This document shows, one piece after another, positions 1 through 64,000 of a DNA stretch of 64,000 nt. The notes beneath the pieces were generated by a model that saw only the letters and a list, made by a program, of their open reading frames with translations, ran no database searches and was not told the origin of the DNA. Source of the DNA: Eledone cirrhosa (lineage: Eukaryota); the NCBI GenBank assembly GCA_964016885.1, contig OZ024742.1:16058001-16122000 (forward strand). The letters are read 5' to 3'. The translations under genes and the position numbers were made by a program. Position 1 is the stretch's first letter, and every line of letters starts with the position of its first letter.

Positions 1-414
1 TGTAATTCTTTTATGCTTACTGCCTCTGTAATTTGCCTAAACATTGCATCTTTTCTGTGTGTGGATTCTATTTTTATTTCTATGTTCTCTAATTTACCCT
101 TGTGTTCTATCTTAGCATGTTGGTAGAGTACAGATGATTCTTTATTATCTTGAAGGTCTCGCCAGTGTTCATTTATCCGTTCCCCTATACTACGAGCTGT
201 CTCACCTATGTACACTATATTTTTGTTTCTACATTGTCCTTCGGTACATCTTATGCTATACACTACATTTCTAGTTTTACAGTTAATATGGGGGCTTATT
301 TTACAGGTTATACATTTCTTATCTATACATGAGGGGCTTTGGAATGGGTATGTCTTGCTAATAAGTGTTTTTACGGAGGTACCTGGTCTTTCTACTATCT
401 TAATATTGTTGTAA
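1..414 (-). mobile_element. Penelope-like element fragment: linker Cys motif + GIY-YIG endonuclease (runs off the window edge)
   Basis: Manual minus-strand translation, absent from the ORF track (no start codon): YNNIKIVERPGTSVKTLISKTYPFQSPSCIDKKCITCKISPHINCKTRNVVYSIRCTEGQCRNKNIVYIGETARSIGERINEHWRD...DAMFRQITEAVSIKEL. The VVY..YIGET..R..EH..E pattern is the PLE GIY-YIG signature. Confidence 0.85.
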
Positions 415-3667: not shown

Positions 3668-3706
3668 TGAACCTGAGGATTGCGAAAGCATGAATGTACT
3701 TGTTCA
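3668..3706 (+). ncRNA. Minimal/degenerate type I hammerhead-like motif
   Basis: tgaac-CTGAGGA-ttgc-GAAA-gcatgaatgtac-TT-gttca. Stem I tgaac/gttca is perfect; only 4 nt lie in the stem II position. Confidence 0.45.
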
Positions 3707-6646: not shown

Positions 6647-6687
<41 letters not shown>

Positions 6688-6695
<8 letters not shown>

Positions 6696-7141
6696 ATATT
6701 AACAAATGGAAACTATATTTATAAAACCATATTTATTTTATTATACATATTTCAAGGGCTACCAAGGCAAATTATGGTGCGCTTTCATCAGATAAAGTAC
6801 AATACAGATTTGTTTTATAAATAAATATTGACATACCCTGAAAAAGACAACCTTAACGGTTCCTATCCAGGAAGCTCCAACCGTTAAGGTTGTCTTTTTC
6901 AGGGTATGTCAATATTTATTTATAAAACAAATCTGTATTGTACTTTATCTGATGAAAGCGCACCATAATTTGCCTTGGTGGCCCTTGAAATATGTATAAT
7001 AAAATAAATATGGTTTTATAAATATAGTTTCCATTTGTTAATATATTGTATATTTACTCCACTAAACTGTTGAGTGCTTTATATCAGTTATAAAACATGT
7101 TAAGCTTGTTGAATCCCAACAAATTAAATATAACCTCTGCA
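6688..7141. mobile_element. Fold-back PLE pLTR-like insert with a hammerhead in each arm
   Basis: Arms 6688-6861 and 6879-7053 are reverse complements (17-nt spacer), with a unique tail to 7141; (TA)n on both sides. Family members at 12752-13073 and 63795-64000. Confidence 0.8.
6941..7006 (+). ncRNA. Type I hammerhead ribozyme motif (mirror copy on minus strand in left arm)
   Basis: tactttat-CTGATGA-aagcgcacca..tggtggccctt-GAAA-tatgta-TA-ataaaata. Stem I tttat/ataaa, quasi-palindromic stem III, AUA triplet. Confidence 0.65.
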
Positions 7142-7845: not shown

Positions 7846-8637
7846 TATTAAAAAAAAGCCTTCGTGAGCCACCTTTTTTTAAGTAAAAAGAAATTCAAAC
7901 ACACACACACAACACACACACACACACACGCGCGCACACACACAAGCACACAAATAAACATACATATCTTTACATTCTTTATTCAATAGAAAATCTGAAT
8001 TCTGACACCCCAGCGAACTAACCATATTCACTGAACCAGAACAATTCTCCCATCCCTTTCTCTTGACCATTATCTTTCACTTATCATAAAATTCTCTAAA
8101 AAGGCTACAGAATGGATTTCCAACTAAGGGCGCGAACATTTAATGAAAACTTGTTCACGTTACAGCCATAATTTCATTTATAACCAATCAAATTACGCTT
8201 ATTTAAAAAAAAAGCTTTCGTGAGCCCCTTTTTCAAGTAAAAAGAAATTCAAACACTCATATATGAAAAAACAACCTGTGACACCCCCCTCTTATTTGAA
8301 GAACTATTGTAACGCTAACTGGCGCGAAATTTATTATAATTATTGATCAACCAATCAAATTACTTCTCGAAAAACCTGGCATTTCGAGCCACTTTTTCCA
8401 TATAAAACAAGTAACATTCAGAGACCAACCAGATGTGAGAAAAACCAGAGACCCTCTATCTCAACTCTACTTTTGAAAAGCAGAAGAACTGCGAAACCGG
8501 TAAAGGAACCAAATAAATATATATATATTTTTTTTAAAGAAGACTCCAGTTTCATTTTCGATTTCATCTTTTTTTCTTTATACTTTCACTCGTGTAGGAC
8601 ACCTCGTTTATTTTTAATTTCGTAAAAAAAACCTCAC

Positions 8638-8645
<8 letters not shown>
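7846..8645 (-). mobile_element. ~800-bp dispersed repeat (Helitron-like 5' end on minus strand); second copy at 54884-55652
   Basis: Collinear high-identity match including the internal (CA)n and the terminus cctcactttctaa-(TA)n. Confidence 0.7.
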
Positions 8646-8692
<47 letters not shown>

Positions 8693-8812
8693 TATAGACA
8701 TAGAATATTCGAAAATATTCTGTATGTTTATAATAAACATTTTGAAGACCTAATCGCTATAGAATAGAATACGTCACGTATTACAATTAGATTCTCGATA
8801 AAAGCAAGGGAA

Positions 8813-8855
8813 GTAATCTACGCGTTTCATTCTCGTTAGAAATCATCAGGACTAC
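8813..8855 (-). ncRNA. Type I hammerhead ribozyme motif (5 minus-strand copies: 8813, 9123, 9433, 9743, 10053)
   Basis: Reverse complement reads gtagtc-CTGATGA-tttctaacgagaat-GAAA-CGCG-TA-gattac. Confidence 0.8.
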
Positions 8856-10649
8856 ATATCCAGTGCTTTTATCGAGAATGACACAGCTAGAGACTTATAG
8901 AATACTTAGCTGTGTACAGGAACTGGTTTGAAAGAGCAGTTGCCGGTCCGGCAGAAATTAGAAATTGGAATAAATGCTCTGAAATAGCGATATATATGTG
9001 AATATAGACATAGAATATTCGAAAATATTCTGTATGTTTATAATAAACATTTTGAAGACCTAATCGCTATAGAATAGAATACGTCACGTATTACAATTAG
9101 ATTCTCGATAAAAGCAAGGGAAGTAATCTACGCGTTTCATTCTCGTTAGAAATCATCAGGACTACATATCCAGTGCTTTTATCGAGAATGACACAGCTAG
9201 AGACTTATAGAATACTTAGCTGTGTACAGGAACTGGTTTGAAAGAGCGGTTGCCGGTCCGGCAGAAATTAGAAATTGGAATAAATGCTCTGAAATAGCGA
9301 TATATATGTGAATATAGACATAGAATATTCGAAAATATTCTGTATGTTTATAATAAACATTTTGAAGACCTAATCGCTATAGAATAGAATACGTCACGTA
9401 TTACAATTAGATTCTCGATAAAAGCAAGGGAAGTAATCTACGCGTTTCATTCTCGTTAGAAATCATCAGGACTACATATCCAGTGCTTTTATCGAGAATG
9501 ACACAGCTAGAGACTTATAGAATACTTAGCTGTGTACAGGAACTGGTTTGAAAGAGCGGTTGCCGGTCCGGCAGAAATTAGAAATTGGAATAAATGCTCT
9601 GAAATAGCGATATATATGTGAATATAGACATAGAATATTCGAAAATATTCTGTATGTTTATAATAAACATTTTGAAGACCTAATCGCTATAGAATAGAAT
9701 ACGTCACGTATTACAATTAGATTCTCGATAAAAGCAAGGGAAGTAATCTACGCGTTTCATTCTCGTTAGAAATCATCAGGACTACATATCCAGTGCTTTT
9801 ATCGAGAATGACACAGCTAGAGACTTATAGAATACTTAGCTGTGTACAGGAACTGGTTTGAAAGAGCGGTTGCCGGTCCGGCAGAAATTAGAAATTGGAA
9901 TAAATGCTCTGAAATAGCGATATATATGTGAATATAGACATAGAATAATCGAAAATATTCTGTATGTTTATAATAAACATTTTGAAGACCTAATCGCTAT
10001 AGAATAGAATACGTCACGTATTACAATTAGATTCTCGATAAAAGCAAGGGAAGTAATCTACGCGTTTCATTCTCGTTAGAAATCATCAGGACTACATATC
10101 CAGTGCTTTTATCGAGAATGACACAGCTAGAGACTTATAGAATACTTAGCTGTGTACAGGAACTGGTTTGAAAGAGCGGTTGCCGGTCCGGCAGAAATTA
10201 GAAATTGGAATAAATGCTCTGAAATAGCGATATATATGTGAATATAGACATAGAATATTCGAAAATATTCTGTATGTTTATAATAAACATTTTGAAGACC
10301 TAATCGCTATAGAATAGAATACGTCACGTATTACAATTAGATTCTCGATAAAAGCAAGGGAAGTAATAAACGCGTAGATTACTTCCCTTGCTTTTATCGA
10401 GAATCTAATTGTAATACGTGACGTATTCTATTCTATAGCGATTAGGTCTTCAAAATGTTTATTATAAACATACAGAATATTTTCGAATATTCTATGTCTA
10501 TATTCACATATATATCGCTATTTCAGAGCATTTATTCCAATTTCTAATTTCTGCCGGACCGGCAACCGCTCTTTCAAACCAGTTCCTGTACACAGCTAAG
10601 TATTCTATAAGTCTCTAGCTGTGTCATTCTCGATAAAAGCACTGGATAT

Positions 10650-10692
10650 GTAGTCCTGATGATTTCTAACGAGAATGAAACGCGTAGATTAC
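10650..10692 (+). ncRNA. Type I hammerhead ribozyme motif (7 plus-strand copies, every 310 bp from 10650 to 12510)
   Basis: Stem I gtagtc/gattac, core CTGATGA (10656-62) and GAAA (10677-80), stem II ttct-aacg-agaa, palindromic stem III ACGCGT, GUA triplet (predicted cut after 10686). Confidence 0.8.
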
Positions 10693-12709
10693 TTCCCTTG
10701 CTTTTATCGAGAATCTAATTGTAATACGTGACGTATTCTATTCTATAGCGATTAGGTCTTCAAAATGTTTATTATAAACATACAGAATATTTTCGAATAT
10801 TCTATGTCTATATTCACATATATATCGCTATTTCAGAGCATTTATTCCAATTTCTAATTTCTGCCGGACCGGCAACCGCTCTTTCAAACCAGTTCCTGTA
10901 CACAGCTAAGTATTCTATAAGTCTCTAGCTGTGTCATTCTCGATAAAAGCACTGGATATGTAGTCCTGATGATTTCTAACGAGAATGAAACGCGTAGATT
11001 ACTTCCCTTGCTTTTATCGAGAATCTAATTGTAATACGTGACGTATTCTATTCTATAGCGATTAGGTCTTCAAAATGTTTATTATAAACATACAGAATAT
11101 TTTCGAATATTCTATGTCTATATTCACATATATATCGCTATTTCAGAGCATTTATTCCAATTTCTAATTTCTGCCGGACCGGCAACCGCTCTTTCAAACC
11201 AGTTCCTGTACACAGCTAAGTATTCTATAAGTCTCTAGCTGTGTCATTCTCGATAAAAGCACTGGATATGTAGTCCTGATGATTTCTAACGAGAATGAAA
11301 CGCGTAGATTACTTCCCTTGCTTTTATCGAGAATCCAATTGTAATACGTGACGTATTCTATTCTATAGCGATTAGGTCTTCAAAATGTTTATTATAAACA
11401 TACAGAATATTTTCGAATATTCTATGTCTATATTCACATATATATCGCTATTTCAGAGCATTTATTCCAATTTCTAATTTCTGCCGGACCGGCAACCGCT
11501 CTTTCAAACCAGTTCCTGTACACAGCTAAGTATTCTATAAGTCTCTAGCTGTGTCATTCTCGATAAAAGCACTGGATATGTAGTCCTGATGATTTCTAAC
11601 GAGAATGAAACGCGTAGATTACTTCCCTTGCTTTTATCGAGAATCTAATTGTAATACGTGACGTATTCTATTCTATAGCGATTAGGTCTTCAAAATGTTT
11701 ATTATAAACATACAGAATATTTTCGAATATTCTATGTCTATATTCACATATATATCGCTATTTCAGAGCATTTATTCCAATTTCTAATTTCTGCCGGACC
11801 GGCAACCGCTCTTTCAAACCAGTTCCTGTACACAGCTAAGTATTCTATAAGTCTCTAGCTGTGTCATTCTCGATAAAAGCACTGGATATGTAGTCCTGAT
11901 GATTTCTAACGAGAATGAAACGCGTAGATTACTTCCCTTGCTTTTATCGAGAATCTAATTGTAATACGTGACGTATTCTATTCTATAGCGATTAGGTCTT
12001 CAAAATGTTTATTATAAACATACAGAATATTTTCGAATATTCTATGTCTATATTCACATATATATCGCTATTTCAGAGCATTTATTCCAATTTCTAATTT
12101 CTGCCGGACCGGCAACCGCTCTTTCAAACCAGTTCCTGTACACAGCTAAGTATTCTATAAGTCTCTAGCTGTGTCATTCTCGATAAAAGCACTGGATATG
12201 TAGTCCTGATGATTTCTAACGAGAATGAAACGCGTAGATTACTTCCCTTGCTTTTATCGAGAATCTAATTGTAATACGTGACGTATTCTATTCTATAGCG
12301 ATTAGGTCTTCAAAATGTTTATTATAAACATACAGAATATTTTCGAATATTCTATGTCTATATTCACATATATATCGCTATTTCAGAGCATTTATTCCAA
12401 TTTCTAATTTCTGCCGGACCGGCAACCGCTCTTTCAAACCAGTTCCTGTACACAGCTAAGTATTCTATAAGTCTCTAGCTGTGTCATTCTCGATAAAAGC
12501 ACTGGATATGTAGTCCTGATGATTTCTAACGAGAATGAAACGCGTAGATTACTTCCCTTGCTTTTATCGAGAATCTAATTGTAATACGTGACGTATTCTA
12601 TTCTATAGCGATTAGGTCTTCAAAATGTTTATTATAAACATACAGAATATTTTCGAATATTCTATGTCTATATTCACATATATATCGCTATTTCAGAGCA
12701 TTTATTCCA

Positions 12710-12751
<42 letters not shown>

Positions 12752-12756
<5 letters not shown>

Positions 12757-13073
12757 GATATTAAATAAATGGAAACTATATTTATAAAACCATATTTATT
12801 TTATTATATATAATTCAAGGGTACCACGACACATTGGTACGCTTTCATCAGAGAAAATACAAAGTTTGTTTTATGAATAGAGACATACTCATGAAAATCA
12901 TACCTTATCGGTTGGATATTCATATGATTTTCATGAGTATGTCTCTATTTATAAAACAAACTTTGTGTTTTATCTGATGAAAGCGTACCAATGTGTCGTG
13001 GTACCCTTGAATTATATATAATAAAATAAATATGGTTTTATAAATATAGTTTCCATTTATTTAATATCATTAT
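12752..13073. mobile_element. Fold-back insert of the 6688-7141 family; hammerhead core mutated (GAAT)
   Basis: Arms 12752-12902 and 12922-13073; CTGATGA at 12974-80 followed by aagcgtacca..tggtaccctt-GAAT-tatatata-ataaaat. Confidence 0.8.
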
Positions 13074-13086
13074 ATATATATATATA

Positions 13087-15250
<2,164 letters not shown>

Positions 15251-38862: not shown

Positions 38863-38892
38863 CATACATACATACATACATACATACATACA

Positions 38893-41800
38893 TAACAGTT
38901 ATAACGACAGTGTTGTATATAACAGCAATAACGACAGTGTTGTATATAAGAGCAATAACGACAGTGGTGTATATAACATCAATAATGCCAGTGATGTATA
39001 TAACAGTTATAACGCAGTGTTGTATATAACCGCAATAATGACAGTGTTGTATATAACAACCATAATGACAGTGTTGTATATAACAGTAATAACGACAGTG
39101 TTGTAAATCACAGCTATAACGACAGTGTTGTATATAACAGCAATAACGACAGCGATGTATATAACAGCTATGATGACAGTCTTCTATAACAGCTATAACG
39201 GCAGTGTTGTATATAGCAGCAATGGGAGACAGTGTTGTATATAACAGCAATAACGACAGTGTTGTATATAACAGCTATAACGACAGTGTTGTATATAACA
39301 GCTATAACGACAGTGTTGTATATAACAGCTATAACGACAGTGTTGTATATAACAGCTATAACAACAGTGTTGTATATAACAGCTATAATGACAGTGTTGT
39401 ATATAACAGCTATAACGACAGTGTTGTATATAACAGCTATAACAACAGTGTTGTATATAACAGCTATAATGACAGTGTTGTATATAACAGCTATAACGAC
39501 TGTTTTGTATATAACAGCAATAACGACAGTGTTGTATATAACAGCAATAACGACAGTGTTGTATATAACAGCAATAACGACAGTGTTGTATATAACAGCT
39601 ATAATGACAGTGTTGTTTATAACGGCAATAACGACAGTGTTGTATACAACAGCTATAAGGACAGTGTTGTATACAACAGCTATAAAGACAGTGTTGTATA
39701 TAACAGCAATGACAGACAGTGTTATATATAACAGTTATAACAACAGTTTTGTATATAACAGCAATAACGACAGTGTTGATATGACAGCAATAACGACAGT
39801 GTTGTATATAACAGCTATAACGACAGTGTCGTATATAACAGCTATAACGACAGTGTCGTATATAACAGGAATATTTACAGTGTTGTATATAACCGCTATA
39901 AGAGACAGTGTTGTATATAACAGCTATAATGACAGTTTTTTTAATATAACAGCTATAATGACGATGTTGTATATAACAGCAATAACGACAGTGTTGTATA
40001 TAACAGATATAACGACAGTGTTGTATATAACAGCTATAATGACAGTGTTGTATATAACAGCTATAACGACAGTGTTGTATACAACAGCAATGAGAGACAG
40101 TGTTGTATATAACAGCAATAACGTCAGTGTTGTACATAGCAGCTATTACGACAGTGTTGTATATAACAGCTATAATGACAGTGTAGCATATAACAGCTAT
40201 AATGACAGTGTTGTATATAACAGCAATAATGGCAGTGTTGTATATAACAACTAAAAGGACAGTGTTGTATGTAACAGCTATAAGGACAGTGTTGTATATA
40301 ACAGCAATAATGAATGTGTATATAACAGTTATAATGACAGTGTTTTATATAACAGCTATAGTGACAGTGTTGTATATAACAGCTATAACGACAGTGTTGT
40401 ATATATAAGTTATAACGGCAGTGTTGTATATAGCAGCTATAACAACAGTGTTATATAACAGCAATACCGACAGTGTTGTATATAAAACTAATCACGACAT
40501 TATTGTATATAACAGCTATAACGACAGTGATGTATATAACAGCTATGATGACAGTTTTGTATATAACAGTTATAACACAGTGTTGTATATAACAGCAATA
40601 GTGACAGTGTTGTATATAACAGCTATGATGACAGTTTTGTATATAACAATTATAACACAGTGTTGTATATAACAGCTATAACAACAGTGTTGTATATAAC
40701 AGCTATGATGACAGTTTTGTATATAACAGTTATAACGACAGTATTGTATATAACAGCAATAACGGCAGTGATGTATATAACAACTATGAGAGACAATGTT
40801 GTATATAACAGTAATAACGACAGTGTTCTCTATAACAGCTCTAAATGCAGTGTTGTATATAACACCTATAACGACAGTGTTGAATATAACAGCTATAACG
40901 ACAGTGTTGTATATAACAGCAATAATGACAGTGTTGTATATAACAGCTATAATGACAGTTTTGTATATAACAGTTATGATGACAGTGTTGTATATAACAG
41001 CAATAACTACAGTGTTGTATATAACAGCAATAATGCCAGTGATGTATATAACTGCAATAATGACAGTGTTGTATATAACAGCAATTATGATAGTGTTGTA
41101 TATAACAGCAATAATGTCAGTGTTGTATATAACAGCAATAATGACTGTGTTGTATATAACAGCAATAATGTCAGTGTTGTATAGAACAGTTATAATGACA
41201 GTGTTGAATATAACAGCTTAATGTCAGTGTTGTATATAACAGCAATAATGACAGTGTTGAATATAACAGCAATAATGACAGTGTTATATATAAAATTAAT
41301 AACGGCAGTGTTGTATATAACAGCTATAACGACAGTTGAATATAACAGCTATAATGACAGTGTAGCATATAACAGCTATAACGAAAGTGTTGTATATAAC
41401 AGCTATAACAACTGTGTTGTATATAACAGCTATAATGACAGTGTTTATATAACAGCTATAATGACAGTGTTGTATCTAACAGCATTACCGAGAGTGTTGT
41501 ATATAATACCAATAACGACAGTGTTGTATATAACAGCTATAACGACAGTGTTGTATATAACAGCTATAACAACAGTGTTGTATATAACAGCTATAACGAC
41601 AGTGTTGTATATAACAGCAATTACGACAGTGTTGTATATAACAGCTATAACGACAGTGTTGTATATAACAGCTATAACGACAGTGTTGTATATGACAGCT
41701 ATAACGACAGTGTTGTATATAACAGCAATAACGACAGTGTTGTTTATAACAGCAATTACGACAGTGTTGTATATAACAGCTATAACGACAGTGTTGTATA

Positions 41801-44800
41801 CAACAGCTATAAGGACAGTGTTGTTTACAACAGCTATAAAGACAGTGTTGTATATAACAGCAATGACAGACAGTGTTATATATAACACTTATAACAACAG
41901 TTTTGTATATAACAGCAATAACGACAGTGTTGTATATAACAGCAATGAGAGACAGTGTTGTATATAACAGCAACAACGACAGTGATGTATATAGCTGCAA
42001 TAACAACAGTGTTGTATATAACAGCAATAATGACTGTGTGTATATAACAGCTATAATGACAGTGTTTTATATAACAGCTATAATGACAGTGTTGTATATA
42101 ACAGCATTACCGATAGTGTTGTATATAACACCAATAACGGCAGTGTTGTATATAACAGCTATAACGACAGTGTTGTATATAACAGTGATAACGACAGTGT
42201 TGTATATAACAGCTATAACTGCAATGTTGTATATAATACCAATAACGGCAGTGTCGTATATAACAGCAATAATGACAGTGTTGTATATAACAGCAATAAT
42301 GAGAGTGTTATATATAACACTCTCATCGGCAGTGTTCTATATAACAGCAATAGCGATAGTGTTCAATATAACAGCTATAACGACAGTGTTGTATATAACA
42401 GCTATAACAAAAGTGTCGTATATAACAGCTATAACGAAAGTGTTGTATATAACAGCAATGTAAGACAGTGTTGTATATAACAGCAATAACGACAGTGTTG
42501 TATATAACAGCAATAACGAGAGTGTTGTATACAACAGCTATAACCACAGTGTTGTATATAACAGCTATAACGACAGTGTTGCATATAACAGCTATAACGA
42601 AAGTGTTGTATATAACAGCAATGTGAGACAGTGTTGTATATAACAGCAATAAAGACAGTGTTGTATATAGCAGCTATAACGACAGTGTTTTATATAACAG
42701 CTATAACAACAGTGATGTATATAACCGCTATGATGACAGTTTTGTATATAACAGTTATAACGACAGTGTTGTATATAACAGCAATAGTGACAGTGTTGTA
42801 TATATAAGCTATGATGACAGTTTTTTATATAACAGTTATAACGACAATGTTGTATATAACAGCAATAACGCCAGTGTTGTATATAACAGCTATAACGACA
42901 ATGTTGTATATAACAGCTATAACGACAGTGTTGTATATAACAGTAATAACGACAGTGTTGTTTATAACAGCTATAATGGCAGTGTTGTATATAATAGCTA
43001 TAACGACAGTGTTGTATATAACAGCTCTAATGACAGTGTTGTATATAACAGCAATAATGACAGTGTTGTATATAACAGCTATAATGACAGTTTTGTATGT
43101 AACAGTTATAATGACAGTTTTGTATATAACAGCTATGATGACAGTGTTGTATATAACAGCAATAACGACAGTGTTGTATATAACAGTAATAATGCCACTG
43201 ATGTATATAACTGCAATAATGACAGTGTGGTATATAACAGCAATTATGATAGTGTTGTATATAACAGCAATAATGACAGTGCTATTTATAACAGCAATAA
43301 TGACAGTGTTGTATATAACAGGAATAGCGACAGTGTTGTATATAAAAGCTATAACGACAGTGTTTTATATAACAGCTATAACGACAGTGTTGTATATAAC
43401 AGCTATAACAACAGTGTTGTATATAACAGCTATAACGACAGTGTTGTATATAACAGCTATAAAGACAATGTTGTATATAACAGCAATAATGACAGTGTTG
43501 TATATAACAGCAATAACGACAGTGTAGAATATAGCAGCTATAACGACAGTGTTGTATATAACAGCTGTAACGGCAGTGTTGTATATAACAGCTATAATGA
43601 CAGTGTTGTATATAACATCAATACCGACAGTGTTGTTTATAACACCAATAATGACAGTGTTGTATATAACAGCTATAACGACAGTGTTGTATACAACATC
43701 AATAATCACTGTGTTGTATATAACAACAATAACGACAGTGATGTATATAACAGCTATGATGACAGTTTGTATATAATAGCAATAACGCCAGTGTTGTATA
43801 TAAAAGCTATAACGACATTGTTGTATATAACAGCTGTAATGACAGTGGTGTATATAACAGCTGTAATGACAGTGGTGTATATAACAGCTATAACGACAGT
43901 GTTGCATATAACAGCTATAACGACAGTGTTGTATATAACAGCTATAGCAACAGTGTCGCATATAACAGCTATAACGTAAGTGTTGTATATAACAGCAACG
44001 TGAGACAGTGTTGTATATAACAGCAATAACGACAGTGTTGTATATAGCAGCTATAACGACAGTGTTTTATATAACAGCTATAACAACAGTGATGTATATA
44101 ACCACTATGATGACAGTTTTGTATATAACAGTTATAACGACAGTGTTGTATATAACAGCAATAGTGACAGTGTTGTATATAACAGCTATGATGACTGTTT
44201 TTTATATAACAGTTATAACGACAATGTTGTATATAACAGCAATAACGTCAGTGTTGTATATAACAGCTATAACGACAATGCTGTATATAACAGCTAGAAC
44301 GACAGTGTTGTATATAACAGTAATAACGACAGTGTTGTTTATAACAGCTATAATGGCAGTGTTGTATATAACAGCTATAACGACAGTGTTGAATATAACA
44401 GCTATAACGACAGTGTTGTATATAACAGCTCTAATGACAGTGTTGTATATAACAGCAATAATGACAGTGTTGTATATAACAGCTATAATGACAGTTTTGT
44501 ATGTAACAGTTATAATGACAGTTTTGTATATAACAGCTATGATGACAGTGTTGTATATAACAGCAATAACGACAGTGTTGTATATAACAGTAATAATGCC
44601 GGTGATGTATATAACTGCTATAATGACAGTGTGGTATATAACAGCAATTATGATAGTGTTGTATATAACAGCAATAATGACAGTGTTATTTATAACAGCA
44701 ATAATGACAGTGTTGTATATAACAGGAATAGCGACAGTGTTGTATATAACAGCTATAACGACAGTGTTTTATATAACAGCTATAACGACAGTGTTGTATA

Positions 44801-47800
44801 TAACAGCTATAAAGACAGTGTTGTATATAACAGCAATAATGACAGTGTTGTATATAACAGCAATAACGACAGTGTTGTATATAACAGCTATAATGACAGT
44901 GTTGTATATAACAGCAATAATGACAGTGTTGTATATAACAGCAATAACGACAGTGTTGTATATAACAGCTATAATGACAGTGTTGTATATAACAGTTGTA
45001 ATGACAGTGTTGTATATAACAGCAATTATGACAGTGTTGTATATATCACCTATGATGACAGTGTTGTATATAACAGCAATAATGAACGTGTTATATATAA
45101 CAGCATTACCGACAGTGTTGTTTATAATAGCTACAATGACAGTGTTGTATATAACAGCAATAACGACAGTGTTGTATATAACAGCAATAACGACAGTGTT
45201 GTATATAACAGCAATAACGACAGTGTAGAATATAGCAGCTATAACGACAGTGTTGTATATAACAGCTGTAACGGCAGTGTTGTATATAACAGCTATAATG
45301 ACAGTGTTGTATATAACATCAATACCGACAGTGTTGTTTATAACACCAATAATGACAGTGTTGTATATAACAGCTATAACGACAGAGTTGTATATAACAT
45401 CAATAATCACTGTGTTGTATATAACAGCAATAACGACGGTGATGTATATAACAGCTATGATGACAGTTTGTATATAATAGCAATAACGCCAGTGTTGTAT
45501 ATAAAAGCTATAACGACATTGTTGTATATAACAGCTGTAATGACAGTGGTGTATATAACAGCTGTAATGACAGTGATGTATATAACAGCAATAGCGACAG
45601 TGTTGTATATAACAGTTATAATAACTGGGTTGTATATAACAGCTATCATGACAGTGTTGTATATAACACCAATAACGGCAGTGTCATATATAACAGCAAT
45701 AATGACAGTGTTGTATATACCAGCAATAATGACAGTGTTGTATATAACAGCTGTAATGACAGTTTTGTATATAACAGCTATAACGACAGTGTTGTATATA
45801 ACAGCAATGAGAGGCAGTGTTGTATATAACAGCAATAACGACAGTATTGTACATAACAGCTATAACGACAGTGTTGTATATAACAGCAATGAGAGACAGT
45901 GTTGTATATAACAGCAATAACGACAGTGATATATATAACAGCAATAATGACAGTGTTGTATATAACAGCAATAATGACAGTGTTATATATAACAGCAATA
46001 ACGAGAGTGTTGTATATAGCAGCTATAACGAAAGTGTTGTATATAACAGCAATAACGACAGTGTTGTATATATCAGCTATAACCGCAGTGTTGTATATAA
46101 CAGCAACAACGACAGTGTTGAATATAACAGCAATATAACACTAATAACGGCAGTGTTTTATATTACAGCACCAACGACAGTGTTGTATATAACAGCTATA
46201 ACGAAAGTGTTGTATATATCAGCAATTATGACAGTGTTGTATATAACAGCAATAGCGACAGTGTTGTGTATAACAGCTATAACGACACTGTTGTATATAA
46301 CAGCTATAACGACAGTGTTGTATATAACAGCAACGTGAGCCAGTGTTGTATATAACAGCAATAATGACAGTGTAGTATACAACAGCTATAACGAAAGTGT
46401 TGTATATAACAGCTACAACGAAAGTGTTGTATATAACACCTATAATGACTGTGTTGTATAGAAAAGCTATAATAACTGTGTTTCATGTAACAGCAATAAC
46501 GACTGCGTTGTATAAAACAGCAATAACGACAGTGTTGTATATAACACTAATAACGGCAGTGTCGTATATAACAGCTATAACGTCAGTGTTGTATATAACA
46601 GCTATAATGACAGTGTTGTATATATCAGCTATAACGACAGTGTTGTGTATAACAGCAATGAGAGATAGTGTTGTAAATAACAGCTATAATGACAGTGTTG
46701 TATATAACAGTTATAACGACAGTGTCGTATATAACAGCAATGAGAGACAGTGTTGTATATAACAGCAATAACGACAGTGTTGCATATAACAGCAATAACG
46801 ACAGTGTTGAATATAGCAGCTATAACAACAGTATTGTATATAACAGCTATAATGACAGTGTTGTATATAACATCAATACCGACAGTGTTGTATATAACAG
46901 TTATAACGACAGTGTTGTATATAACAGCAATGAGAGACAGTGTTGTATATAACAGCTATAACGACAGTGTTGTATATAACAGCTGTAACGACAGTGGTGT
47001 ATATAACAGCAATAGCGACAGTGTTGTATATAACAGCTATAGTGACAGTTTTGTATATAACAGTTATAATAACAGTGTTGTATATAACAGCTATAATGAC
47101 AGTGTTGTATATAACACCAATAACGGCAGTGTCGTATATAACAGCAATAACGACAGTGTTGTATATACCAGCAATAATGACAGTGTTGTATATAACAGCT
47201 GTAATGACAGTTTTGTATATAACAGCTATAAAGACAGTGCTGTATATCACAGCATTGAGAGGCAGTGTTGTATATAACAGCAATAACGACAGTATTTTAT
47301 ATAACAGCTTTAACGACAGTGTTGTATATAACAGCAATAATGACAGTGTCGTATATAACAGCTGTAATGACAGTTTTGTATATAACAATAATAATAACAG
47401 TGTCGTATATAACAGCTATGATAACAGTGTAATATATAATACCAATAACGGCAGTGTCGTATATAACAACAATAATGCCAGTGATGTATATAACAGCAAT
47501 AACCACAGTGATGTATATAACAGCAATAATGACAGTGTTGTATATAACAACTATAACAACAGTGTTGTATATAACAGCAATAACGACAGTGTTGTATATA
47601 ACAGCTATAAAGGACAGTGTTGTATATAACAGCTATAATGACAGTGTTGTATATAACAGCAATAACGACAGTGTTGTATATAACAGCTATAACAACAGTA
47701 TTGTATATAACAGCTATAATGACAGTGTTGTATATAACAGCAATAGCGACAGTGTTGCATATAACAGCAATAATGAGAGACAGTGTTGTATATAACACCA

Positions 47801-50800
47801 ATAATGACAGTGTTGTATATAACAGCAACAACGACAGTCTTGTATATAACAGCTATAATATCAGTTTTGTATATAACAGCTATAACAGCAGTGTTGTATA
47901 TAACAGCATTAATGACAGTGTTGTATATATCAGCTATAATGACAGTGTTGTATATAACTGCAATAACGGCAGTGTTGTGTTTAACGGCAATAATCACAGT
48001 GTTTTATATAGCAACTGTAATGACAGTGTTGTATATAACAGCAATAATGACAGTTTTGTATATAACAGCTATAATGACAGTGTTATATATAACTCTAATA
48101 ACAGCAGTGTTGTATATGACAGCAATAACGACAGTGTTGTATATAACAGCTATAAGAGACAGTGTTTATATAACAGCTATAAGGACAGTGTTGTATATAA
48201 CAGCTATAACGACAGTGTTGTATATAACAGCTATAACGACAGTGTTGTATATATCAGCAATAAAGACAGTGTTGTATATAACAGCTATAACGGCAGTGTT
48301 GTATATAGCAGCTATAATGAGAGACAGTGTTGTATATAACAGCTATAAAGGCAGTGTTGTATATAGCAGCTATAATGACAGTGTTGTATATAACACCAAT
48401 AACGACAGTGTTGTATATAACAGCAATAATGACAGTGTATCATATAACAGCTATAACGGCAGTGTTGTATATAACACCTATAACGACAGTGTTTGTATAT
48501 AACAGCTAAAACGACAGTGTTGTACATAACAGCTATAATGACAGTGTTGTATATAACAGCAATAACGACGGTGTTGTATATAACAGTAATAACGACAGTC
48601 TTTGCATATAACAGCAATAACGACAGTGTTGTATATAACAGCTATAACGACAGTGTTGTATATAACAGCAATAACGACAGTGTTTTATATAACAGCAATA
48701 ACGGCAGTGTTGTATATAACAGCTATAACGACAGTGTTGTATATAACACCAATAACGACAGTGTTGTATATAACAGCTATAATGACAGTGTTGTATATAA
48801 CAGCTATAATGACAGTGTTGTATATAACAGCTATAACGACAGTGTTGTATATAACAGATATAAGGATAGTGTTGTATATAACAGCTATAACGACAGTGTT
48901 GTATATAACAGCAATGAGAGACAGTGTTGTATATAACAGCAATAATGACAGTGTTGTATATAACAGTTATAATGACAGTGTTGTATATAACAGCTATAAT
49001 GACAGTGTTGTATATAAATCAATGAGAGACATTGCTGTCTATAAGAGCAATAATGAGAGACAGTGTTGTATATAACAGCAATAACGACAGTGTTGTATAT
49101 AACAGCAATAACGACAGTGTTGTATATAACAGCTATAACGACAGTGTTGTATATATCAGCAATAAAGACAGTGTTGTATATAACACCTATAACGGCAGTG
49201 TTGTATATAGCAACTATAATGAGAGACAGTGTTGTATATAACAGCTATAACGGCAGTGTTGTATATAGCAGCTATAATGAGAGACAGTGTTGTATATAAA
49301 AACAATAACGACAGTTTTGTATATAACAGCTATAACGACAGTGTTGTATATAACAGCAATAACGACTGTGTTTATATATAACACCAATAACGACAGTGTT
49401 TTATATAACAACAATAATGACAGTGTTGTATATAACACGAATAACGACAGTGTTGTATATAACAGCAAAAATGACAGTGTATCATATAACAGCTATAACG
49501 GCAGTGTTGTATATAACAGCAATAACGACAGTGGTGTATATAACAGCTATAACGGCAGTGTTGTATATAACAGCAATAACGACAGTGTTGTATATAACAG
49601 CAATAACGATGGTGTTGTATATGACAGATATAACGACAGTGTTGTATATAAAAGCATTAACCACACTGTCGTATATAACACCAATGACGGCAGTGTTGTA
49701 TATAACAGCAATAACGAAAGCGGGGTATATAACAGCGATAATTACAGTGTTGTATATAACAGTTATAACGACAGTGTTGTATACAACAGCTATAAGGAGA
49801 GTGTTGTATACAACAGCTATAATGACAGTGTTGTATACAACAGCTATAATGACAGCGTTGTATACAACAGCTATAAGGACAGTGTTGTATATAACAGCAA
49901 TAACGACAGTGTTGTATACAACAGCTATAACGACAGTGTTGTATATAACAGCAATAACGGCAGTGTTGTATATAACAGCTATAATGACAGTGTTGTATAT
50001 AATAACAATAACGACAGTTTTGTATATAACAGCTATAACGACAGTGTTGTATATAACAGCTATAATGACAGTGCTGTATATAACAGCTATAACGACAGTG
50101 TTTGTATATAACACCAATAACGACAGTGTTGTATATAACAGCAATAATGACAGTGTATCATATAACAGCTATAACGGCAGTGTTGTATATAACAGCTATA
50201 ACGACAGTGTTTGTATATAACAGCTAAAACGACAGTGTTGTATATAACAGCTATAATGACAGTGTTGTATATAACAGCAATAGCGACGGTGTTGTATATA
50301 ACAGTAATAACGACAGTGTTTGCATATAACAGCAATAACGACAGTGTTGTATATAACAGCTATAACGACAGTGTTGTATATAACAGCAATAACGACTGTG
50401 TTTTATATAACAGCAATAACGGCAGTGTTGTATATAACAGCTATAACGACAGTGTTGTATATAACACCAATAACGACAGTGTTGTATATAACAGCTATAA
50501 TGACAGTGTTGTATATAACAGCTATAATGACAGTGTTGTATATAACAGCTATAACGACAGTGTTGTATATAACAGCTATAACGACAGTGTTGTATATAAC
50601 ACCAATGAGAGACAGTGTTGTATATAACAGCAATAACGACAGTGTTGTATATAACATCAACAACGACAGTGTTGTATATAACAGCAATGAGAGACAGTCT
50701 TTATATAACAGCTATAAGGACAGTGTTGTATATAACAGCTATAACGACAGTGTTGTATATAACAGTAATGAGAGACAGTGTTGTATATAACAGCAATAAT

Positions 50801-51656
50801 GACAGTGTTGTATATAACAGTTATAATGACAGTGTTGTATATAACAGCAATAACGACAGTGTTGTATATAACAGCAACAACGACAGTGTTGTATATAGCA
50901 GCTATAATGAGAGACAGTGTTGTATATAACAGCTATAACTACAGTGTTGTATATAACAGCTATAATGACAGTGTTGTATATAAAATCAATGAGAGACATT
51001 CCTGTCTATAAGAGCAATAATGAGAGACAGTGTTGTATATAACAGCTATAACGACAGTGTTGTATATAACAGCAATAACGCCAGTGTTGTATATAACAGC
51101 AATAACGACAGTGTTGTATATAACAGCAATAACGACAGTGTTTGTATATAACAGCTATAACGACAGTGTTGTATATATCAGCAATAAAGACAGTGTTGTA
51201 TATAACACCTATAACGGCAGTGTTGTATATAGCAGCTATAATGAGAGACAGTGTTGTATATAACAGCTATAACGGCAGTGTTGTATATAGCAGCTATAAT
51301 GAGAGACAGTGTTGTATATAACAACAATAACGACAGTTTTGTATATAACAGCTATAACGACAGTGTTGTATATAACAGCTATAATGACAGTGTTGTATAT
51401 AACAGCTATAACGACAGTGTTTTATATAACAACAATAATGACAGTGTTGTATATAACACCAATAACGACAGTGTTGTATATAACAGCAATAATGACAGTG
51501 TATCATATAACAGCTATAACGACAGTGTCGTATATAACACCAATAACGACAGTATTGTATATAACAGCTATAACGACAGTGTTGTATATAACAGCAATAA
51601 AGACAGTGTTGTATATAACAGCAACAACGACAGCGTTGTATATAACAGCAATAATG
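38893..51656. repeat. 27-bp minisatellite, ~12.8 kb (~470 units)
   Basis: Consensus ACAGTGTTGTATATAACAGCWATAAYG; 9-codon periodicity gives the spurious TVLYITAIT / DSVVYNSYN ORFs. Confidence 0.97.
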
Positions 51657-59767: not shown

Positions 59768-60708
59768 ATATTTATTAAAATAACAGGTTAAAGTTTAAGC
59801 AAAGAATCGCTGCTTTCACCCTTAACGGGATCTTCTGAAACTAACAAAGTCAATCTGTAAACGCAGAAGTGGATATTTCAAAAAACTTTGCAACCGGAGG
59901 AAGACAGGAAGACGATACTTTGGTTCGTGGAAACGTTCCCTGGCAAAGAACGGGAAAAAACGAATATATATACGTCATTATTTATTTATTTGTATACACG
60001 CACACACACACACACACACACATATTTATATGTGCGTGGTTTTGTATACCTATGGTAAGTGTTTTCGCGTATGCTTGTGTATGTACGTATTTGTATGCGT
60101 GTATGTATTTATTTAATTTCTATTACCTCTGTATTGTATTTATTTACTTTATTCTTAACTCTGAAGCGGAGATTCATTCGGTCTCCTAGTTAGAATTTTA
60201 GTCTACGTCTTCTGCTATACCATTTACGTGGTTTTGTCTTTGCGTGCAATTGTTCTCCACGATCCACATATGATGTATTATCTTCGTTTTTTCCGTCCAT
60301 TGCCAGAGAACGTCTCTATGAAACACCTAAGAGAACATTAGTCTACGACCTCTTTTATACCATAAACGTGGTTCTGTCTTTGCGCGTAATTGTTTTTCAC
60401 CGCTCCTATTAATGACGTATTATTCGTTTTTTTCCCGTTCTTTGCCAGGGAACGTTTCCACGAACCAAAGTATCGTCTTCCTGTCTTCCTCCGGTTGCAA
60501 CGTTTTTTGAAATATCCACTTCTGCGTTTACAGATTGACTTTGTTAGTTTCAGAAGATCCCGTTAAGGGTGAAAGCAGCGATTCTTTGCTTAAACTTTAA
60601 TCTGTTATTTTAATAAATATTTGCTCTACGGTTCTTATATATTTGATATATATTTATCCTTATCGAGCCCTCTTTGGATTTTAGTCTTCAAATTTATTAT
60701 TATTACTA
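59768..60708. mobile_element. Inverted-repeat insert (~200-bp arms) with variant hammerhead and internal ~140-bp tandem duplication
   Basis: 59768-59965 is the reverse complement of 60421-60620; 60198-60320 and 60338-60460 are direct repeats; tail to 60708; (TA)n flanks. Confidence 0.85.
60546..60596 (+). ncRNA. Variant type I hammerhead-like motif (CAGAAGA core)
   Basis: agttt-CAGAAGA-tcccgttaagggt-GAAA-gca-gcgattctt-tgc-TT-aaact. All three stems pair; the same core is in the minus-strand copies at ~3355-3405 and ~59793-59843. Confidence 0.55.
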
Positions 60709-60731
60709 TATATATATATATATATATATAT

Positions 60732-64000
<3,269 letters not shown>

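Follow-up and report, generated by a model that had tools for sequence, protein, structure and literature searches.

The locus described here raises the question of what decides where a tandem array of a ribozyme-bearing repeat turns round on itself, and whether the turning point can be read as the trace of an RNA intermediate. The window, a stretch of 64,000 nucleotides from Eledone cirrhosa (contig OZ024742.1, forward-strand positions 16,058,001 to 16,122,000), contains two arrays of the same monomer, each built of two arms lying head to head. The initial annotation held that both arrays invert at the predicted ribozyme cleavage site and share their outer ends, and proposed that the cleavage/ligation junction makes reverse transcriptase (RT) stall or switch template, and that RT starts at preferred sites.

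Two head-to-head arrays of a 310-nt monomer

The reference monomer (window 10687-10996, plus strand) is 310 nt long with 35% GC (107/310 G+C). Phases are numbered along it, with +1 being the G that follows the predicted GUA^ cut. Judged by its length the monomer is noncoding, as a frame within 310 nt is too short for an RT, and because all arm sequence maps to this monomer the element contains no ORF for RT plus GIY-YIG. Motif inspection indicates a type I hammerhead in every unit, with a predicted cut after A310; Rfam lends no support, returning no hammerhead match to the unit at the gathering threshold and chance hits only up to E 10. The copy at 10650..10692 on the plus strand, with its predicted cut after 10686, comprises a putative helix I GUAGUC/GAUUAC, the core CUGAUGA...GAAA, a 4-bp helix II and a palindromic ACGCGU helix III/loop 3, and folding prediction has two monomer copies co-folding through the ACGCGU helix III. 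A dimer-type hammerhead layout with a palindromic helix III is described in the available part of PMC4209133.

Array 1 consists of a minus arm at 8680..10367 (5.4 monomers) and a plus arm at 10368..12713 (7.6 monomers), set between (TA)n targets at 8644..8689 and 12713..12754. The outer end of the minus arm is the short one; it lies at phase 130-139 and merges into (TA)n, the last diagnostic base being phase 130 (position 8689) and TA microhomology extending the match to 139. The plus arm runs to the long outer end at phase 165 (12711), beyond which two further T match to 167. The segment of phases 130-165 (12676..12711, plus strand), hereafter called the tail, is present at this outer end and missing from the opposite one. 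The inversion junction (10359..10386) forms a hairpin with a 10-nt loop, where the minus arm stops at phase 2, a single nucleotide short of the predicted cut, and the plus arm starts at phase 302 (-9). Array 2 has a minus arm at 60726..62551 (5.9 monomers) and a plus arm at 62551..63650 (3.5 monomers), flanked by (TA)n targets at 60707..60736 and 63649..63798. Its short outer end lies at phase 121-127, with phase 121 (60732) as the last diagnostic base and TA microhomology to 127, and its long outer end is again phase 165. The inner ends are phase 162 in the minus arm and phase 306 (-5) in the plus arm, which share one G at 62551 as a 1-nt microhomology.

Mapping of every arm onto the monomer confirmed the coordinates first given for both arrays. 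Three of the four inner ends do lie within 9 nt of the predicted cut, as had been claimed (p = 7.5 × 10⁻⁴ for a site named beforehand), a value to be read in the knowledge that the 9-nt width was picked after looking and that two of the three ends belong to a single junction. The outer ends common to both arrays are also real (165 in the plus arms, 130-139 and 121-127 in the minus arms) and recur throughout the family.

The shared ends might have been inherited by both arrays from one insertion through segmental duplication, which the initial annotation had named as an outcome that would overturn its reading. This is ruled out. Array 1 is fixed for 295G and array 2 has 295A in every unit, the junctions and arm lengths differ, the left flanks are unrelated, and on the right side dispersed repeats alone are in common. 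Because haplotypes, junctions, arm lengths and flanks differ, the arrays are separate insertions. Variant 12C is found in 2/6 minus-arm units and 1/4 plus-arm units of array 2. A DNA-level origin in the wider sense (segmental duplication, an extrachromosomal DNA circle or satellite spread), or a fold-back artefact of assembly, is regarded as hardly credible. Long perfect inverted repeats are prone to misassembly and the junctions are those of the assembly, but such an origin has to contend with the differences in flanks, haplotypes and junctions between the two window arrays, with unequal arms and two distinct base-precise ends in 85/85 insertions, and with an end rule that recurs in related families and in ORF-bearing ones.

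Outer ends and inversion points across the family

Genome-wide counts were made with exact sequence patterns. The 3.0-Gb genome contains 14,896 exact matches to a 26-nt hammerhead-core stretch spanning the cut site, and 992 exact copies of the 165 end followed by (TA)5, with 0 for the reversed control. In the first 36 Mb of contig C1 this exact end is carried by 11/19 known insertions, from which the family is estimated, roughly, at ~1,700 insertions, about 1,300 of them two-armed. The locus sample comprised 96 loci, all on contig C1, of which 80 were selected for the 165 end and 16 regardless of ends. Together with the window these gave 99 insertions: 88 simple minus-plus pairs, 10 single-arm cases (among them one next to an N gap, one cut at the locus edge and one whose second arm is too short to map) and 1 double inversion. 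Junction counts excluded L047 (the window's own array end), L048 (-+-+), the two window junctions and the 10 single-arm cases. Median arm length is 1,057 nt, about 3.4 monomers, and arrays reach 27+ units. The family consists of over a thousand very young insertions, the singleton divergence being 4 × 10⁻⁴ (107 differences in 264,242 bases of ungapped-diagonal alignment).

In each of the 85 complete two-armed insertions a long outer end (about 165) is paired with a short one (about 126-139), the two offset by about 26-44 nt, and the rule holds in 12/12 two-armed insertions chosen regardless of their ends. The single exception, L286, found among later loci, has 165/165 ends. Short ends fuse with the target through the AU run of the unit, where C131 is often replaced by the T of the target TA; long ends are almost without homology to TA. 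Insertions of Penelope-like elements (PLEs) are described, in the portions available of PMC8557442 and PMC3846280, as having an inverted 5'-truncated copy, a 30-40-bp tail that is often at one end only, and a bias towards (TA)n. Each of these features was found here: a head-to-head inverted 5'-truncated copy in 88/99 insertions, a 30-40-bp tail at a single end in 85/85 with L286 as the exception, and an AT-rich or (TA)n target, including the 12 unselected two-armed cases. The shared outer-end pattern is thus explained by a known PLE feature, the tail. According to the accessible text of PMC11167929, the purified protein of Poseidon, a lizard PLE, cleaves and extends both strands and starts reverse transcription at two tail-bounding sites, and hammerhead mutants insert normally in vitro.

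Initiation at preferred sites, one half of the initial interpretation, is therefore strongly supported by 992 exact 165+(TA)5 ends against 0 in the control and by the long/short rule in 85/85; the other half, a stall or switch at the cut, did not hold (9/172 ends vs 10.0). An RNA intermediate is likely, on the basis of Penelope-type ends and whole-array homogeneity, not of the inversion points.

Among 86 head-to-head insertions, with the window left out, the cut has 9/172 inner ends no farther than 9 nt away, where 10.0 would be expected (95% CI 2.4-9.7%, background 5.8%), and 5/172 no farther than 3 nt, where 3.3 would be expected. The arms in this sample traverse about 830 cut sites. Testing for clustering of breakpoints, as had been suggested, therefore showed inner ends that are not enriched at the cut, though not perfectly uniform either (chi-square p 0.22, Kuiper p 0.062, Rayleigh p 0.028, mean phase 63). 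The densest windows, phases 13-23 (scan p 0.062) and 74-92 (p 0.04), are both marginal, and the first arises partly from an internal inverted repeat. Genome-wide, a pattern for units without a preceding A310 gave 76 matches, 15 of them isolated, which resolved into 6 inner ends exactly at +1 (5 junctions), 2 same-strand jumps at +1 (L270 and L271) and 7 point changes. About 4-6 exact +1 inner ends would be expected (3.8-6.1 for 1,000-1,600 junctions). Fold-backs of the array 1 type numbered 3 genome-wide, in the window, in L252 and in the locally repeated locus L247-249, with about 1-4 expected and 1 at the control phase. One of the same-strand jumps, in L271 (C3:16014046, 44 kb before the window), belongs to a third nearby family insertion and loses about 8 nt before the cut.

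RT stalling or template switching at the cleavage/ligation junction as what sets the inversion point is consequently considered very improbable. It could draw on the three of four window ends, on L127 and L252, which are also joined near the cut, on the two +1 same-strand jumps, and on one insertion in which both arms stop exactly at +1. This last (L248 1010-1321, C3:172484.3-172484.6 kb) has arms of 168 and 139 nt and a 5-nt insert, and parts of it are repeated locally; it may represent a rare run-off class, as from a cleaved linear monomer. L252 lies on contig C17, unlinked to the window, and repeats the array 1 junction plus one G, from which we infer that both were joined through a 3-nt AAT microhomology flanking the cut (phases 298-300 with 2-4). 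Against these cases stand the family counts: 9/172 vs 10.0, 5 vs 3.3 within 3 nt, about 830 cut sites crossed, 6 exact +1 ends vs 3.8-6.1 expected, and a 95% upper bound that allows an excess of at most about 4 percentage points. Joining at the cut is plausible as a rare side class and refuted as a general rule, by a criterion that the initial annotation had itself set, and chance most likely accounts for three window breakpoints lying so near the predicted cut. The enrichment of inner ends at the scissile bond that would mark a class of cleavage-site-directed inversions was absent, and the claim that the inversion points give direct evidence of an RNA intermediate fails with it. Inversion at the cut site is not a property of the family and should not be used as evidence for an RNA intermediate.

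Inner joins follow microhomology, not the cut site. An insert of 1-16 nt is held by 19/86 junctions. In the 67 insert-free joins, microhomology of at least 1 nt was seen in 57 (47% expected), of at least 3 nt in 24 (6.7% expected) and of at least 8 nt in 5 (0.15% expected). The two recurrent 250/13 joins both run through an identical 16-nt internal inverted repeat. Self-priming has been proposed for head-to-head Penelope repeats in the available part of PMC3846280; one cDNA would fold back on itself and the second arm would be a DNA copy of the first. For the family studied here this is judged quite improbable. The two inner phases of a junction are unrelated (9/86 within 15 nt vs 8.6 expected), leaving no excess of short loops, and the long-end arm is longer than its partner in just 45/82, so either arm can be the longer, which argues against a simple fold-back even though a short-loop hairpin forms at the array 1 junction and 2/82 junctions have zero phase difference. 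Common arm haplotypes, sometimes with in-register variants, would also be expected of a fold-back, but the outer ends are fixed separately for the two arms, and the target-derived TA that replaces element bases at the short end is primer-like.

The template of the arms

The two arms of one insertion have an identical majority haplotype in 52/57 cases, compared with 304/2,850 between-insertion pairs. Thirteen variants are fixed in only one of 88 insertions, and three of these were checked genome-wide. Variant 216G is fixed in 18/18 units of L102 and in no other array; its 29 genome-wide matches are the 18 of L102, 4 singletons and those of a mosaic array whose background differs. Variant 88T marks a subfamily of 4 arrays and 119G is found in 2 arrays, the sampled array having the longest arms in each. 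Five insertions with five different haplotypes are each fixed for a change of A310 in both arms (9/9, 20/20, 4/4, 14/14 and 13/13 units), two to G and three to T. These are L284 (C28:81391217-81394011), L285 (C1483), L286 (C21), L287 (C4:347.0 Mb) and L288 (C1:269.46 Mb), and a genome-wide pattern count found no other array fixed for the same A310 change on the same background. A variant carried by all units of one insertion with no parent is what copying of a single monomer circle gives, and the shared arm haplotype together with the private A310 changes favours rolling-circle copying of one monomer. It is possible that the A310 changes are ligation scars or post-cleavage changes on RNA. L284 and L285 read GUG at the cut. 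GUG violates the NUH cleavage rule, and its fixation in these two arrays calls into question the need for cleavage in every round.

The same two-ended PLE priming could also act on a long uncleaved linear multimer, with homogeneity derived from the parent array or from local unequal exchange. Mosaic arrays (L061, L086, L158 and window array 2) are found in the family, and in L069, L086 and window array 2 variants present in part of the units keep the same register when counted from the outer end of either arm (in the last it is 12C, at window positions 61151, 61771 and 63187). The partial-unit variants of window array 2, L086, L069 and L158 call for a template of several units, for switching between templates or for later conversion, and in-register variants are not the product of a pure monomer circle. 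Such a template also accords with the GUG arrays having propagated at least once, with arrays of at least 27 units as possible parents, and with in vitro work in which unprocessed RNA was the dominant PLE substrate (PMC11167929, as far as available); poor cleavage can occur in hammerheads whose palindromic helix III is short (PMC4209133, available part). It is less easily reconciled with 216G and the five A310 changes, which are fixed in whole single insertions with no parent array in the assembly, or with the longest 88T and 119G arms, for which there is no longer source, and 5' truncation would shorten arrays in each round. A parent may be absent from the haploid assembly. On these grounds a linear template is considered unlikely, and the monomer circle is taken, with some reserve, as the probable usual template.

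Two other origins for the variant pattern were examined and set aside. Fixed variants fall on the 17 core positions in 0/29 cases and singletons in 8/112, counts too few to argue for selection on the hammerhead core, which the A310G arrays contradict. A>G accounts for 8/29 fixed variants and 11/108 singletons (p 0.03), a single post hoc test with arbitrary polarity, and A-to-I editing as their source was dropped on that account.

The unit (window 10606-10915) was also detected in 20 public runs (X1-X20) with 18 organism labels. In X1 and X2 it forms one 340-nt circular unitig without differences, a form that tandem DNA also yields, and two Hi-C runs of the same study and label as X1 contain 0 unit reads in 12.8 million each. 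Among the runs listed none is on record as RNA, a point that has no bearing on expression. Cross-contamination, diet and mobile RNA are all possible explanations for the presence of the unit in these runs.

Relationship to Penelope-like elements and retrozymes

PLE ORFs with RT and GIY-YIG are present in the genome, and no autonomous PLE with the same tail was found among 39 GIY-YIG loci and 68 further loci. The cis links found are limited to a hammerhead helix II of similar form, in an ORF-bearing family, and a tail shared with a noncoding sister family. The sister family (L039 5330-5720, L129 2424-2866, L161 480-1110 and L208-L237) is older, has a period of about 313-324 nt and 5,967 matches, and is about 77% identical to the 310-nt monomer over phases 59-196; the two have the tail motif and the long-end position in common. 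A diverged 312-nt subfamily (L001/L031, L163, L167 and L254) with about a dozen fixed changes follows the same end rule.

The ORF-bearing hammerhead family (L178-L207 and L238-L245; 9,826 core matches) has an ORF with weak similarity to PLE RT (E about 3 × 10⁻⁴ to 1 × 10⁻³) and no Pfam hit. Long/short ends were seen in 11/12 clear compact inverted pairs, at +15..28 and +88..95 from its predicted cut. In a sample selected for the core, 18/30 loci are truncated no more than about 10 nt upstream of it, at a point where the longer copies carry a pyrimidine run followed by ...CCAG|ATT, a splice-acceptor-like sequence. An intron of Drosophila virilis Penelope has its end at the 5' end of helix I (PMC4209133, available part), and by analogy these stops could reflect run-off close to the 5' terminus of an RNA that is linear and spliced. 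A defined 5' terminus would then be marked by a sharp peak, with which the 310-nt family, having no such peak, contrasts.

Several PLE-like features lie near the arrays. Window 7850-8645 is a PLE 3' region/pLTR, and array 1 sits in its terminal (TA)n. The region shows about 86% identity to L169, in which a 938-aa frame gives RT and GIY-YIG matches. The region and the monomer both end ...AAT before (TA)n; no other similarity between them was seen. Small inverted elements occur in TA tracts at window 6684-7056, 12737-13088, 13117-15029 and 3673, and hammerhead motifs were scored at 3673, 6791, 6949, 13187 and 14959; the small elements look like 5'-truncated PLE ends, not MITEs. A 27-bp minisatellite of about 470 copies occupies window 38892-51654.

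Metazoan non-LTR retrozymes are described, in the available passages of PMC7229834, PMC7761336 and bioRxiv 10.64898/2026.07.22.740005, as noncoding tandem monomers of 170-400 nt with GC under 50% and a type I hammerhead, and the copying of circRNA templates to tandem cDNA by PLE RT has already been proposed in the same passages. The present family resembles them in its noncoding, tandem, low-GC unit of 310 nt with one predicted type I hammerhead each, and in its insertions dispersed alongside PLEs (14,896 core matches; RT and GIY-YIG ORFs). It departs from those passages in its two-armed head-to-head insertions, its fixed uneven ends and the join statistics given here: the word 'inverted' occurs 0 times in the main text of PMC7229834, as do 'head-to' and 'breakpoint' in the searchable text of bioRxiv 10.64898/2026.07.22.740005. 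In the literature searched (main texts, with few subscription journals), no description of two-armed or inverted retrozyme arrays or of PLE twin priming was found. Expression and cleavage have been demonstrated, in the passages available, for other retrozyme families; in this one cleavage is predicted from the sequence. With EN+ PLEs, as far as their published descriptions were available, the family shares the inverted 5'-truncated head-to-head copy, the one-ended 30-40-bp tail, (TA)n targets and 5'-junction microhomology, and the two internal RT starts have a counterpart in the PLE protein, which extends both strands in vitro. It differs from them in being a monomer repeat without an ORF, in having multimers of up to 27+ units for both arms, in the near strictness of the tail rule (85/85, one exception), where theirs is called 'optional' in the text available, and in that the 39 GIY-YIG loci and 68 further loci yielded no sequence link to any autonomous family. 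The monomer-repeat family is accordingly best classed, from its sequence features, as a putative metazoan non-LTR retrozyme with a Penelope footprint.

An inverted 5' part also arises in twin priming of L1, where a single RNA is primed by two target ends and microhomology serves to join the resulting cDNAs. Two priming ends, one RNA and a microhomology join are common to both systems; here, unlike in L1, both starts are fixed, 26-44 nt apart, and neither arm stops at the start of the other.

The explanation that best accounts for these data as a whole, and that we hold to be on balance probable, is a two-armed hammerhead-repeat insertion written by a PLE, probably from a circular template. In the first step a genomic array would be transcribed, would self-cleave via dimeric hammerheads and would be ligated into a circle. 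A PLE protein would then nick both strands of (TA)n; one 3' end would prime at phase 165 without homology and the other would pair with the AU run at 121-139. Two RTs would circle the template for ~3.4 monomers (median 1,057 nt), without pausing at the sealed junction and with near-random stops, and the two cDNA ends would finally be joined via 1-16 nt of microhomology or a short insert. The steps from nicking to joining are held to be very probable.

The link between retrozymes and PLEs was already known as a proposal, and the 310-nt family appears, from its sequence, to add a member. Over a thousand young insertions provide a large natural data set on Penelope-like integration, each event showing a long end and a short one, with truncation points scattered and joins made through microhomology. 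They connect the in vitro result for a lizard PLE, two starts and both strands, to a non-autonomous retrozyme in vivo, and the family sets up a direct test of a circular against a linear template. A bolder reading, put forward tentatively and thought rather doubtful, is that each array is a single-molecule record of one RNA circle made by the ribozyme, on which the two RTs of a PLE dimer start at the tail edges, almost invariably one RT per edge, and roll. If it were true, one-off post-cleavage changes of the RNA (A310 to U or to a non-cleavable G) would have become fixed in every unit, the head-to-head structure of Penelope would be explained without antisense self-priming, and the arrays would prove, from a genome, that rolling-circle reverse transcription takes place in an animal.
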